A stretch of 61,958 bases of DNA from the IMG/VR virus record IMGVR_UViG_2939521961_000017. One strand, 5' to 3'. Position numbers: made by a program. Shown in pieces: positions 9,001 through 15,000 of the stretch; position 1 is the first letter of the stretch, and every line of letters starts with the position of its first letter. The DNA comes from a virus. Taxonomy: Duplodnaviria > Heunggongvirae > Uroviricota > Caudoviricetes.

Positions 9001-12000
9001 CAACTGACTGGCATATTTGTTAATGGTAACGATAAGCTCTTGCTCAGCCTCATCCAGATAATCACCGATACCTCGCCTGTCACCGTCAAAATCATCGAAA
9101 TCGGCACGAATCTTGGCAACCTTCTGGATTGCGGACAACACCTCACTAGGAATTACCGGATAGTTGGTTGACGTTTCCGCGATTTCCCGAAAATTATTGG
9201 TTGACGAATTCTTATTTTCCCGAAAGTTTCTGGCCTGAAGCATGGCGGCGCGGCAGGCATTCCAGCCAGTAGCGTAATATTTCGCATCCTGCCAGCTCGT
9301 TTGTACATTTGAGTACGCTTTTTCCTCTGTCATGGCCTCTGGTATTGATGCCGGTGCAATTCGTGGCAGGCCGATATATAGTGGTACATCTCCCGGCTCC
9401 ATCGAATTGACGGGCCAAATATACGCATCACTACCATGGTTAATGAGCGCAATCCCCGAAGTATCGATGATGCCAAATGGCTCCGCTGTCAATGCAGTCA
9501 ATGCAATTTCATAAGCCCGACGCTCAATATTGTCTCGCACGTCCAGGCTGCTTATGCGCTCTTTGATTTCTTTAATCAGTTTCTTATCGGTGAAAGTGGT
9601 CATCTCACTCTCCTTTGATGCGAATGCCAGCGACGCGTAGTGCGTGTTCTAAGTCAATCAGGCAAAGCCAGCTGCCATTTTCTTTAGGTATCATGACATG
9701 TCGCTTATCAGCATTTATTGGGTGCCCATATCGAAGGTCGTAGCGAGTCGGTAATTGAACTTCCCTCGCTTCCAGTTCTGTAATGCGTTTGTTTTTAGCT
9801 TCTAGTTCATCCAGCAGCACCAGCACAACCTGCGGTGTGACTTTCATACGAAACGCAAGCAATTTTTGCGGCGTTGCCACGACTTTTATTGCTTCTGCCG
9901 CCTCACGCAGTGCCTGATAGTCAATCTTGCTCACTGGTTGCCTCCTTTACGGATCTGCGCTGCGATGCGCGAAAAAAAAGCCTCCCGCGTATGGCTGTTA
10001 AGAGCTGGCGCGAACGCCGCGTTAAGAACGGCAGCATCACAGCCGTCATCGATATAGAGCGCAATTTTTTTCTCCAGGCGCGCTTTGGCTTCCTGCAACT
10101 GCATACCCCGGCACGCACGCGGGATATAATCAGCAATTTGAGCGATAGCTTTTTCGTTCTGTTTAAACATGCTTCACCTCGATAGGCTTGATGGTGTCTA
10201 ACAGCAGTCGGCGGCGCGTATTTTCTGCAAAATGGCGGCGTCCAGTTTCTTTGTGGTAAAACTCGTTTTTGCCAACGACCCACATCCGCTCTGTTTGGTG
10301 CAATTTTTTTACCTGCGGGCCATCTTTGGTGATCACGGTACCGGTATGGGTTTTTACGATTGTCATGCCACGACCTCTTCGAATTTCAACTCCAATTGGT
10401 CACCCCAGATTTCACATGATTCGGAACACGAACCAGTATCAAACCGCTTGGCCAGCACCATCGCCTGATACAAACTTCTGTAGTCGCTGTCGGCATACAT
10501 TCTGGCAATCCCGTCAAGCGTCAGGTGACCACGGTACATAACGTCTTTACCTGTTCTGCGATGACCATCCCTGACGTGTTTGCCTGTAACCAGTTCATTA
10601 AAAACCCGCATCAGACCAGGTTCGTCTTTACATGCAAGCCCCAGCTTTTGCGTTGACTTTTTGATGCAAAAAACACAGTTCCCGAGGTGCTCCGGGATTT
10701 GCAAATCAAAAGGTTGTTTTTGCCACCACCGGATAACATCCGACTTATCAAAATCTGACAGCTCGGCAAGATACCGGACGCCAGGTTTCGGTTTCAGCCT
10801 ACGGGGTTCGTCCGCACGAATACCGAGCCATGTGATGTAATTCCCTCGCCCAAAATGGTCATCGCAATATTTCGTGAAAGGGGTGAGTTTTAGCCTGTCA
10901 GTACAGAATGCGCCGCCGATGTATGGCGTACCGTACTTTTTAACCATGTCCATAAACGGTTTAAGCACCGGCATTCGCGTCTGAATATCCTTTGGTTCCC
11001 ATTCCGTATAACCATTTGGCTGCCCAAGCTCTGGATTTATATCGACCTGCAACACAGTTAGCGGTATGCCCCAGAACTTCAAAACCTCCCGAATAAAGCG
11101 GTATGTCAGCGGATGTTCGCAACCGGTATCCATAAAGATGTAGCAGACGTTATTGCCAGCCTTTCTTTGTTCTTCCATCAGGTGAACAAGATATGCAGAT
11201 GTTCTCCCGCCAGAAAAACTAACTACATGAGTTATGCACATTTGCGTAATTCCGATAACTCGTTGAAGCGTTCCATAAACATCCCGTAGGCATGGCCCGG
11301 TGCCAGTGGAATCACTTTGAACATCTCTGTTGCCGGGATACCTTCCAATACAGGCCAGAAAGAGCCATCATCAAGTCCGAGATCGCGGCGTTCGGTTGCC
11401 AGCATGATGAGATCGGCATATTTCACTGGCGTGCTCATAACAGGAGGTAACCCGTATTTCTCACGGATTACGGCGTCTATTTTTTCTTCCATCCGTTTAT
11501 AGTCAGGAAGAAGTCGTTTCAGTGGCGCGGGGATGTCCTGGCAATATGCTTCTGTTGCATCATGCATTAACGCTTCAAAAGCAAATTCCTGCGGCACCAG
11601 CTGGCTGCAAAGCACCGCATGCTGGGCGACACTGTAGAAGTGTGAAAGATGTCCTGCAAAGCGACAGATATTTGAAAGGGAAACTGCGATATCGTTAATC
11701 ACGATGTCGTCTTTATTTATCTTGTCATAATAAAAATGCTTCCCGGAAAAAGTTTTAATAAATGACATTTCGTTCTCCACTTTATATGCGCTGCACCGCG
11801 CTGAATTCTGCTAAAAGGAAGCTCTCACCATCCGGTGATTATTGAGTTAATTACGTTTCCATAAATGCCCCCGCAGGGGCATTTGCAGTAATGAAATCAG
11901 GCGGTGAAAGTACCAATAAAGGTTTCTACTTTGCTGTCTTTGAATTTCTCAACAAGCAGATCACGAAATTCGTTAGCCATTTCTTCCTGCATCGCTTCCA

Positions 12001-15000
12001 GCTGAATAATGCGCAGAACCAGTACAGGACGATCGCCAGTGATAATGCTGAGGCGTAATTTAAACGGACGTTCTTTCAGGCCTTCAAACGGAACGCATTT
12101 AAATTCAAATGCCACTGGCATAATGTCTTTGGTCTTCGCTTCGACAGACTCCATCAGGGAGCGTTTGCCGCTGAAGTCATTGTCTTCAAAATCAGCGGTC
12201 TGGTTTGCTTCAATTGTGATTTTACGGACTGCCGCAGCCGCTTTGGTTGCCTGAATGGTGTCACCATTAGCATCAAAGCCCACAAGGTAGTCGGCCCAGT
12301 CTTCAATCCATTCTGCCAGTGACTTCTGGGAGTTACGCTCGCCATTAACAGACAACAGAGCAGAAAACGGTGCTGTCTTTTTCAGTTTGAGGGTGGCGGT
12401 GTTATCTGCGTGACCTGGTTCATCAATAGTACCCAGGTTAAGCACACTGACGGCTCGCATATTATCGGCATCGATAAAGCAGCGGGTGCCTTCATCTGCA
12501 AGATCTTTAGAATAACGGGTAAAGTCATCGATGCTGGCAGTGGAAAGCGCACCACGGAAACGGAAGCGATTTAAATTAAATTTTTCCAGATCATGAATGC
12601 GGAAATTCTCAGGCAATGCCACAGCATCGGCACCAATATTACTGATAATTTCATTAACACCCTGAGCAGAAATAAGGGCATGGATTTGATTAATTGCGGT
12701 TGCGTCTAAGTTCTGAGACATAATAAGTCCTCACTATATAAAGATATTCAGTGATGAGATAAATAATCAGTTAATTAAGAACGATATTAATGACCTGCTG
12801 CGCGGAGTTTTCCGTCAGGTTCACCGGCAAGAGTCAGTAATTGTCCCTGGTCTTCCTGCAGAATAGTCAGTCGACCACCGCGATTGACATACATCGGCGT
12901 TTCGGTGGTGTCTTCTTCGGAAATTTTCCCGCGGTTAGTCGGGCGAACATATGAGAGTTTGTGTTTGATTTTCACACGGTTCTCATCAAACGGTTCGATT
13001 TCCAGGTTGAGCGAGACCTTACCTTTGGTTTTCGTGTTCATCACACCGGAAGCGACTTCACTGAGAACTGCGCCGATTTTGGTTTCAAATACGCCGCCGT
13101 CCAGCTCCCCGATAAATGCCTGCACATCAGTACTGCGTTCGCTAGCCATTTTGCTGCTCCTCATCATATCGACCCTGCAAGGTCGGTTGGTTTCTCCACA
13201 AAACAGAGAAGAACACCTGCGGTGGCAGCCGCCCGGCTGGATTGGGTTATGAGCCCGTCGTCCGGTGATGCTCTTCTCTGTTTTGTAAAAAGAGCGGTAC
13301 CAGCCGGAAGCAAGTGTACAAACTGGTACCGCCAAAGCAGTGGCTGTTGTGGTGGGGTTGTCACTCAGGCGTATGGTCAACCTGACAATCCGGTGTCCTC
13401 AACGGGGAAAGAGTAACCCCGCCATACTTACCGCCGCGCCATTTCGCGGATTACCACAACGCTGAGAGCACTTAGCAAGTTACGGCACCACACTTTGTCG
13501 CGGTTCCATAAATGCCCTCATCGTTGCACCCTGGTCTCTTCCCAGGCGTCAAACCGGATCGCCGCGCTGGTTAGGCGTCTTATCAGCATCATCATTGACT
13601 TGCACATTCCGGCTACCTGGTTTTTTTGCCCGAGCAAGGAGTGGATTGTCCCCTTTAACGTCCCCAGACCGCTAACGACGCATGTGCCATACGCCGTGTT
13701 ACAACCAAATTTTGTTTAATCTTGCCTGCGGCATGTTTCTTTTAGATACATTATGTATCTCAAGGGTACATTGTCAAGTATAAAAAAACCTGCCGAAGCA
13801 GGTTATAAATATTGATTAGGCCTTTATTTTGTATCTTCTTGGTTTTCCTGAGAAAATTACTGTACCAATTATAGAGCAATTACCGTTAATCTTAATGTAA
13901 GGCTCAGGCCAGTTTGGGTTTAATGCTTTGAGATAACGCTGTGTTCCATCTTCTATCAATCGCTTGAAGGTGGTTTCGCCTGTATCGTGCATCAATGCAA
14001 TAACGTCGTCACCGTGGCAGGCAGGGACTTCGGGATCAACAAAAATCATGTCTCCCGGGCGGTACTCATCAATCATTGAATCACCAATCACCCGCAAGAT
14101 ATAAGTCATTTCGCCACAGGGTACAGGGCAGGGATAAGTTTCTGCTGTGCTCAAATCAACCTCAGAATAGCCAACTTCTTTCCATGCTCCGGCCTGTACC
14201 CATGATATGACAGGGACTAACGTTATTTGTTTGTTAGTGATTGAAACATCAGGTTTTTTTGTGATGTTCGTGGTCTGGTGTTCTTGATCAAGCCATCCGA
14301 CAGGCAGGTCGAAACATTTTTCGATGTGCCGTGCCATGCTGTCACCGATATTTTTAGTAGCACCATCTCCCATAAACCTGCTGGTCTGGGTTGGCTCGCG
14401 ATCAATCATGGTGGCAAAGGAAGAATTCCCGCCAACACCATCTCTCAGTTTTCTGGCGTTAGACCGCCGGATGTCATGGACTGTTTTCATAAAGAAATTA
14501 AAACCTTTGTACCGATAAGGTACAAGTATCTTGAAGGTTCATATTAATCATGTAATATGTATATTGGAGGTACATATTGTATGAAAGCGTATTGGGACTC
14601 TTTAACCAAAGAACAGCAGGGCGAGTTGGCCGGAAAAGTTGGCTCAACACCAGGCTACTTACGGCTGGTTTTCAATGGTTATAAAAAAGCCAGTTTTGTG
14701 CTGGCTAAAAAACTTGAGCAATGCACGTCAGGTGCAATTACGAAATCTGACTTAAGACCGGATATCTATCCGAAAGATTAACAGAACACCTTCAATTTTT
14801 AACCACAGAACGATGAGGCTAACCGTGGGTAAGTATCACTGGAAAGTAGAAAAACAGCCTGAGTGGTACGTGAAAGCTGTCAGAAAAACTATCGCAGCGT
14901 TGCCGGGTGGTTACGCTGAAGCAGCTGACTGGCTGGATGTAACAGAGAACGCATTATTTAACCGCCTTCGTGCCGATGGCGATCAGATTTTCCCGCTGGG

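Follow-up and report, generated by a model that had tools for sequence, protein, structure and literature searches.

IMG/VR virus record IMGVR_UViG_2939521961_000017 (Caudoviricetes), whose full 61,958 nucleotides (nt) are referred to here as the window, contains three neighboring genes at 10363-12721 that code for a PP-loop protein, an HD-domain phosphohydrolase (YfdR), and YfdQ. An earlier note on this sequence proposed that the three may act together. The span appears to be a recombination joint of two independent units in a lambdoid early-left operon. The first unit would be the conserved yfdP-yfdQ-yfdR module of CPS-53/SfV/mEp460-type phages, for which host takeover is the most likely role. 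The second would be a NinC-family PP-loop ATP pyrophosphatase, related to DndC and SspD and not a sulfate-assimilation enzyme, that occupies a swappable cargo slot after yfdR. That these are two independent modules is very probable. The fuller explanation, a joint between a yfdPQR host-takeover module and NinC cargo, is the best overall and is held with moderate confidence.

The features on which this reading depends are as follows (aa, amino acids):

10363-11241, minus strand: NinC-family PP-loop gene (292 aa)
11232-11768, minus strand: yfdR, HD-domain phosphohydrolase (178 aa from the RefSeq ATG)
11769-11896, minus strand: yfdQ-yfdR spacer (128 nt) with an 8-bp GC-rich hairpin and a good yfdR ribosome-binding site (GGAG)
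11897-12721, minus strand: yfdQ (DUF2303; 274 aa)
12787-13149, minus strand: yfdP (120 aa), the first gene of the yfdP-yfdQ-yfdR module
11234-11243, no strand assigned: mosaic junction of the two modules, where homology breaks

All three open reading frames (ORFs) are present on the minus strand, and their naming as PAPS-reductase-like (phosphoadenosine phosphosulfate), HD phosphohydrolase, and YfdQ-like in the earlier note was upheld by hidden Markov model profiles (PF01507 and phrog_424; phrog_318; PF10065) and by RefSeq. The RefSeq ATG was taken as the yfdR start; the GTG given by the ORF lister, at 11780, falls within the Shine-Dalgarno GGAG. Overlap coupling, also proposed for the three genes, holds for yfdR and the PP-loop gene, which share 10 nt (ATGTGCATAA), and fails for yfdQ and yfdR, which are separated by the 128-nt spacer.

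None of this DNA is new. The chromosome of Escherichia coli O26:H11 str. 11368 matches positions 10100-13400 with 100% identity, as do many further O26/O111 strains. The copy in 11368 is a lambdoid prophage in which all three genes are annotated already, and everything described here is annotated in hundreds of E. coli genomes or published. On the identical DNA, RefSeq names the products "phosphoadenosine phosphosulfate reductase family protein", "5'-deoxynucleotidase" (yfdR), and "YfdQ family protein", and places yfdP upstream of yfdQ, followed by an S24/LexA-type repressor.

A mosaic junction at the yfdR stop

Nucleotide homology to K-12 CPS-53 (97%) and mEp460 (98%) begins at 13168/13354 and breaks off precisely at 11234, where yfdR stops. 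From the other side, homology to the Stx2a phage Lys12581Vzw (92.5%) extends from 9900 up to 11243, covers orf79-orf67-NinC, and ends at the start of the PP-loop gene. Because the homologies stop at 11234 and 11243, the joint is a mosaic breakpoint at a gene boundary. NinC is translationally coupled to yfdR only because this junction falls at the stop/start overlap. A junction probe was searched against 5,426 complete E. coli genomes, and the yfdR matches likewise stopped at query position 285, which is window position 11234. The yfdR half of the probe was matched in ~3,034 genomes, and only 283 matched across the junction. The NinC-like gene occurs in 545 E. coli genomes, of which 423 have a near-full-length copy in any context; 74 of the places are on plasmids, and 119 records at 60-80% identity are consistent with a lambda-type copy.

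The slot after yfdR is filled by several different genes. Among 80 IMG/VR contigs that encode a YfdQ at least 99% identical to this one (80 loci were taken per query for the viral sample), it holds a DUF551/yfdS-like gene in 60, NinC in seven, a 296-aa protein in seven, and a 64-aa protein in three. NinC is absent from all 79 yfdP-Q-R loci of a Klebsiella-type clade. A block of NinC, orf67, orf79, and Ea22 recurs in Stx2a phages, where it is preceded by an unrelated 147-aa gene that itself lies downstream of a YfdQ with 53% identity, and on ~97-kb plasmids that lack yfdR, where other hypothetical genes precede it. In Salmonella phage Oslo, NinC is a nin-region gene, and the gene immediately before it encodes a DNA methyltransferase. 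The 296-aa slot protein (L104, L122, L123, and four other IMG/VR loci) is very hydrophobic and of low complexity, has no Pfam match, and could be a membrane-associated defense or exclusion gene.

A species scan was made with one genome per species, keeping 38 NinC loci with at least 4 kb on both sides and excluding lambda contamination. A yfdQ or yfdR homolog was found on the same strand within 3.5 kb of NinC in two of the 38, and any of yfdP, yfdQ, or yfdR within 8 kb in four. In the two same-strand cases (L039 and L050), the yfdR or yfdQ homolog is upstream of NinC, at a distance of 1.6-2.5 kb. The second of these is an Acinetobacter higginsii prophage locus (L050, 4289-8858) in which four genes run in one direction: a YfdP-like gene, a YfdQ-like gene (35% identity), an ORF of 818 aa that resembles a family-A DNA polymerase, and last the NinC homolog; an HD gene was not detected there.

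The three genes do not co-occur across prophages as a set, since the PP-loop gene accompanies the others in 7/80 and 0/79 viral loci, 283/~3,034 genomes, and 2/38 species loci. Independent occurrence, which the earlier note had named as evidence against joint action, is what was found for the PP-loop gene with respect to yfdQ and yfdR. Acting together is supported for yfdQ and yfdR and not supported for NinC with either of them.

Contigs carrying the lambda nin region at low coverage were seen in many unrelated genome assemblies, several of them ~48.4-48.5 kb long. They occur in Pseudomonas, Oceanobacillus, Neobacillus, Shewanella, Bradyrhizobium, Kitasatospora, and a Segatella metagenome-assembled genome. 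Because one of them (L003) is 100% identical to lambda J02459 39577-43077, loci of this type are taken as phage lambda contamination or spike-in and not as native sequence. These loci are:

L003-L013, L016, L029, L061, and others, on genome contigs: lambda contamination

The yfdP-yfdQ-yfdR module

The module proteins are nearly identical to those of K-12 CPS-53, with 99.2% identity for YfdP, 98.2% for YfdQ, and 98.9% for YfdR (176/178). YfdP is present in all 80 of the near-identical E. coli-type contigs and YfdR in 79; the lone contig without YfdR stops 20 nt past yfdQ. In the Klebsiella-type clade (79 contigs, with a YfdQ ~58% identical to this one), a YfdR-like HD gene follows YfdQ in 79/79 and YfdP is upstream in 78/79, with the YfdR-like proteins 40-70% identical. 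YfdP has no Pfam match and belongs to phrog_204, of unknown function in PHROG. PADLOC returned zero matches for YfdR, YfdQ, YfdP, and the 67-aa ORF downstream of the PP-loop gene. According to a 2025 Genome Research paper (PMC12315714), yfdP/Q/R form an early-left cluster that is common in lambdoid phages and has no known function. The cluster occupies the usual place of recombination genes, and YfdQ was considered as a hidden recombinase; this is disfavored by coexistence of the cluster with complete Rec modules (PMC12315714), alongside which it likewise stands in the Stx2a phage examined here.

K-12 genetics ties the two central genes to replication. Noguchi and Katayama reported that multicopy K-12 yfdQRS or yfdQRT inhibits initiation at oriC, and that both yfdQ and yfdR are required, plus yfdS or yfdT (PMC4776307). 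Purified K-12 YfdR binds DnaA domain I in a Phe46-dependent manner, and a host-takeover role in the ancestral phage was suggested by the same authors (PMC4776307). We regard yfdQ and yfdR as a unit because they co-occur in 79/80 and 79/79 loci and because the K-12 genetics needs both. By analogy, YfdR would act on DnaA domain I and, with YfdQ and a DUF551 protein, damp oriC initiation during early-left transcription. The chance that yfdQR serves as an inhibitor of replication initiation during phage growth, as extrapolated from the overexpressed K-12 proteins, is about even. Two points weigh against it. The K-12 phenotype needs overexpression, and its authors warn of a possible artifact (PMC4776307). 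It also needs yfdS or yfdT, yet here a NinC-like gene replaces yfdS, although a DUF551 protein is still encoded at 8740-9603.

YfdS is itself a DUF551 protein. The ORF at 8740-9603 on the minus strand is continuous, with 287 aa and a C-terminal DUF551 domain, and on DNA identical to it RefSeq annotates one short DUF551 gene and two pseudogene fragments.

YfdR and YfdQ proteins

YfdR matches phrog_318, 'deoxyribonucleoside 5' monophosphate phosphatase' (E 5e-111), and an HD protein in the Protein Data Bank (PDB), Atu1052 (2gz4; E 2e-13). Its HD motif is intact (H50 and the H69-D70 dyad). Scores against the YfbR-like profile PF12917 (24.2 bits, just below the 25.9 cut-off) and against NCBIfam PRK03826 (19.9 bits; cut-off 122) fall short. 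The K-12 protein has a nucleotide affinity far below that of YfbR, a true deoxynucleotidase, and its nucleotidase activity is weak (PMC4776307).

YfdQ is a clear DUF2303 protein (PF10065, residues 7-272, E 1.4e-91, 306.9 bits against a cut-off of 26.6; phrog_210, E 1e-119). By sequence it matches PDB entry 9o7m, 'YfdQ Protein' (E 1.5e-44), a homolog that looks roughly half identical. Because 9o7m was deposited with 36 chains, the entry suggests that DUF2303 forms a very large homo-oligomer; a literature search on YfdQ and DUF2303 found no paper on this structure. An AlphaFold2 model of YfdQ (predicted local distance difference test [pLDDT] 76) matched nothing in the PDB library at E <= 0.001, with 9o7m not among the matches, and only DUF2303 or unnamed proteins in BFVD. 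No function could be derived for YfdQ from these fold searches.

The PP-loop gene is a lambda NinC ortholog

In a tblastn search of a phage collection, the PP-loop protein was 78.7% identical to lambda NinC (lambda 41078-41950) over residues 2-292, and it belongs to phrog_424 (E 7e-94). Its PF01507 match (E 9e-9) passes the domain cut-off and is N-terminal, covering profile positions 2-66 of 175. The PP-loop motif is SFSGGRTS at residues 8-15. An alignment of 16 sequences has six invariant cysteines (C113, C126, C189, C192, C272, and C276), with C189-x-x-C192 forming a cysteine pair. In an alignment of 49 homologs down to 51% identity, which includes a cluster (P0008) 78-79% identical, C272 is at least 90% conserved and the other five are invariant. 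The six cysteines probably bind an Fe-S cluster or a metal.

The AlphaFold2 model of the PP-loop protein is confident (pLDDT 88, predicted template modeling score 0.85). The best Foldseek matches were the PP-loop cores of CysH and adenosine phosphosulfate (APS) reductase, at E ~2e-5 with template modeling (TM) scores of 0.36-0.5 over ~180 residues, and the next neighbors were the [4Fe-4S] proteins LarE, TtuA, and NcsA. The last ~110 residues had no counterpart in these structural neighbors. Among PADLOC defense profiles, the best matches were SspD (2.9e-15), BrxP (1.4e-4), and DndC (4.6e-4). The SspD match covers only residues 5-148 and profile positions 2-121 of 277, so the N-terminal domain is related and the protein is not a full-length member; the score against TIGR03183 DndC was 14.8 bits, below the cut-off of 290.4. 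No Dnd/Ssp partner genes (dndA/D/E, sspA/B/C) were found among the annotated neighbors, four of which (yfdR, yfdQ, yfdP, and orf67) were tested with PADLOC.

Association with Dam methylase and a possible role in evasion of Dnd

The recurrent partner of NinC across lineages is a Dam-type methylase, not the adjacent HD or DUF2303 genes. In this prophage the methylase gene lies in the rightward early operon:

18051-18704, plus strand: Dam-type N6-adenine methyltransferase (PF05869, E 7.8e-46)

A PF05869 Dam-type methylase occurs on the same strand within 3.5 kb of NinC in 16 of the 38 species loci and is fused or adjacent in four. Four loci (L039, L041, L044, and L046) have NinC-Dam fusions as single ORFs; they come from an Erwiniaceae bacterium, a Sodalis strain, and a Providencia genome with two such prophages. 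The Dam halves of these fusions are 58-69% identical to the Dam of this prophage. Fusions were also found among the protein matches (P0083, P0087, P0118, and P0119). The first of these, P0083, is the Vibrio phage 44E38.1 protein p0018, which aligns to both genes of this prophage: residues 1-280 to window positions 10396-11235 (55.8% identity) and residues 282-441 to 18051-18563, in Dam. The two 'halves' of such fusions are split here between the leftward and rightward early operons.

The Vibrio phage genes have a published phenotype. Piel et al. moved p0018 and p0019 together into a sensitive phage, which then grew on a Dnd-carrying Vibrio host (bioRxiv 10.1101/2021.05.05.442762). The result is cited in Nucleic Acids Research (2026) as Dnd evasion promoted by a phage PAPS reductase, and genes of this kind are noted there in variable regions rich in anti-defense genes (PMC13551039). 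A search of the window for a p0019 homolog found none (best E-value 1.7).

Because of the 56%-identical Vibrio phage homolog and the gene fusions, we infer that counter-defense or DNA modification aimed at phosphorothioate-based restriction is the most likely job of NinC. It would be an ATP pyrophosphatase carrying a cluster ligated by cysteines, its target would be DNA or a component of phosphorothioate defense, and Dam is possibly the partner of NinC in this prophage, by analogy with the fusions elsewhere. This assignment is tentative, at a little under an even chance. The counter-defense or DNA-modification role that had been proposed for the three genes survives in this form, as the best available reading for the PP-loop gene. 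A wider claim is put forward with more reserve, namely that the NinC family could be a general phage countermeasure against phosphorothioate-based restriction (Dnd, Ssp, and BREX type 4) made up of a PP-loop Fe-S enzyme and a Dam-type methylase.

Several points weigh against these readings. Lambda NinC is dispensable and has no known phenotype, though dispensability in the laboratory is as expected of a counter-defense gene on a defense-free host. The anti-Dnd effect came from a two-gene insert that includes the PAPS-Dam fusion, in which the PAPS domain was not isolated (bioRxiv 10.1101/2021.05.05.442762). NinC and Dam are both genes of nin-type regions, and their proximity may partly reflect shared location; the fusions are evidence independent of proximity.

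Alternative explanations

The NinC family could instead act on RNA or a small molecule, in tRNA thiolation or another adenylation-dependent substitution like those of TtuA, NcsA, TilS, and LarE, with a Dam link that is only positional. TilS and the [4Fe-4S] proteins LarE, TtuA, and NcsA are among the structural neighbors (E ~1e-3), and lambda has NinC, for which a phenotype is not known, yet no Dam of its own. Fusion in frame to a DNA methyltransferase in several lineages argues for a role on DNA, as do the identity of the best defense-library matches (SspD, BrxP, and DndC are DNA-phosphorothioation enzymes) and the anti-Dnd phenotype of the fused homolog. We consider an RNA or small-molecule substrate unlikely.

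A single co-expressed and coupled pathway, in which the PP-loop enzyme, the HD phosphohydrolase, and YfdQ serve together in nucleotide or DNA modification or counter-defense, would account for the placement of all three genes on one strand in one apparent transcription unit. The 10-nt overlap would couple translation of yfdR and NinC. Local co-location is also frequent, with 283 complete E. coli genomes having NinC beside yfdR in addition to the Stx2a phages, and in E. coli the variants closest to this NinC (90-100% identity) usually have a DUF2303 gene one or two genes upstream. In two distant loci (L039 and L050), a NinC homolog is again downstream of a yfdR or yfdQ homolog on the same strand. 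These points weigh against independence of the two modules, but the junction itself is a mosaic breakpoint, ~90% of yfdR genes have another gene in the slot, and none of the 79 Klebsiella-type modules has NinC. The gene is found in the lambda nin region, on plasmids, and beside an unrelated gene in Stx2a phages, and 36 of 38 species loci are without yfdQ or yfdR within 3.5 kb on the same strand. A shared pathway is very unlikely, and two joined modules remain the preferred reading.

CysH has a catalytic C-terminal motif, ECGLH. A true PAPS/APS reductase, acting as an auxiliary metabolic gene that boosts host sulfate assimilation during infection, would fit the Pfam and RefSeq names and the best structural neighbors (CysH and APS reductase), but this was rejected as extremely improbable on equivalog, motif, PP-loop, and fold evidence: the Pfam match spans just 66/175 profile positions, the score for PRK02090, the CysH equivalog, is 19.4 bits with the cut-off at 154, Foldseek TM scores are low for the ~180 residues aligned (0.36-0.5), the conserved C-terminus is GSCSESCE (residues 270-277) with no ECGLH in the translation, and the protein keeps a classical SGGxxS PP-loop where the CysH version is degenerate (aligned chain 6vpu).

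Operon layout and flanking regions

Further features of the leftward early region are the following:

13816-14490: S24 repressor gene, with a terminator-like hairpin next to it at 13804-13787
13750-13777, minus strand: candidate pL-like sigma-70 promoter (TTGACA-16-CATAAT, 11/12 consensus matches)
10163-10366, minus strand: 67-aa ORF that travels with the NinC-like gene in E. coli
9931-10170, minus strand: 79-aa ORF that travels with the NinC-like gene in E. coli

The pL-like candidate (13777->13750, minus) lies directly after the terminator-like hairpin that trails the S24 repressor gene. From the sequence, a leftward early operon for the cluster is plausible. The PP-loop gene and the 67-aa ORF share 4 nt (ATGA). 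The two small ORFs belong to phrog_1226 and phrog_1344, of unknown function in PHROG, and are present without NinC in mEp460.

Between the pL-like site and yfdP, ~600 bp (13150-13750) contain no RefSeq gene in this strain. The ORF lister pushes the yfdP start upstream to a TTG at 13380, and small plus-strand ORFs are annotated in the matching region of mEp460. An N-like antiterminator or a nut region could sit here.

The strongest helix in the yfdQ-yfdR spacer (AAUGCCCC-UGCG-GGGGCAUU) is at 11864-11883 on the minus strand, 14 nt past the yfdQ stop. The whole spacer folds with a z-score of -1.9, and an Rfam search of it gave zero matches. No promoter or terminator was called in the intergenic spacer of the cluster; the hairpin itself is without a T-run and was not called a terminator. 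K-12 and mEp460 share an 18-mer of the hairpin with most of the near-identical E. coli-type loci (80 in all), a conservation that is uninformative on selection as all copies are in DNA at least 97% identical. The hairpin could serve in weak termination, in processing, or as a stabilizer that sets the yfdQ:yfdR expression ratio.

Toward its ends the window has a markedly low GC content, at 0.29-0.35 for 1-4000 and 52000-58000 compared with 0.45-0.60 over the prophage. These stretches hold large ORFs (1-3469, 51641-53989, and 54582-57983) and are probably foreign cargo or flanking island genes.

Implications

The finding is an ordinary one. The PP-loop gene is lambda NinC, though located elsewhere, and the yfdP/Q/R cluster is in the literature already. 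What is useful is mainly corrective and concerns the name, family, and partner of the PP-loop gene: "PAPS reductase" is misleading, and the proper grouping is with the PP-loop enzymes of the NinC, DndC, and SspD-like kind. The link between NinC and Dam, with the idea of a role against phosphorothioate-based defense, is the single lead that deserves to be kept. If it is true, NinC would mark phage DNA or interfere with the host system, and the two partners would be encoded separately in this prophage, one in each of its early operons. The idea is testable for lambda NinC, and hosts with Dnd or Ssp open a concrete, cheap way to probe its function.

Comparison with known systems

The closest relative of the first module is yfdP-yfdQ-yfdR-yfdS-yfdT of K-12 CPS-53 (KpLE1), in which the gene order and the 10-nt overlap at the end of yfdR are unchanged and the yfdQ-yfdR spacer is of similar length. 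CPS-53 continues with yfdS (DUF551, 120 aa) and yfdT, whereas here the NinC-like gene and the 67-aa and 79-aa ORFs follow. CPS-53 is a truncated remnant. Unlike it, the prophage in the window keeps its repressor and early-right genes, and the window has long ORFs consistent with late genes. In lambda, pL follows cI, as the promoter-like site follows the repressor gene here. YfdR has the HD fold and motif in common with the E. coli 5'-deoxynucleotidase YfbR but fails the curated cut-offs, and K-12 YfdR binds DnaA instead.

The PP-loop protein has the PHROG family, PP-loop motif, and conserved cysteines of lambda NinC (Nin 290, ORF-290), which the classical lambda record lists as "Nin 290 (pept unknown)". 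Lambda ninC is a gene of the rightward nin region, flanked by ninB and ninD, and its counterpart here belongs to the leftward early operon, where it fills the slot that follows yfdR. The nin-region location, between the replication genes and Q, is not shared, and location is not a biochemical criterion. DndC, SspD, and BrxP are related in the N-terminal PP-loop domain (the first ~145 residues only), and the NinC protein is cysteine-rich as for an Fe-S or metal site. For p0018 of Vibrio phage 44E38.1, the PAPS domain covers the whole NinC-like protein, including the cysteine motifs. In that phage it is fused to a PF05869 Dam domain beside p0019 (DUF6475); in this prophage NinC and Dam are separate genes on opposite strands, 6.8 kb apart.

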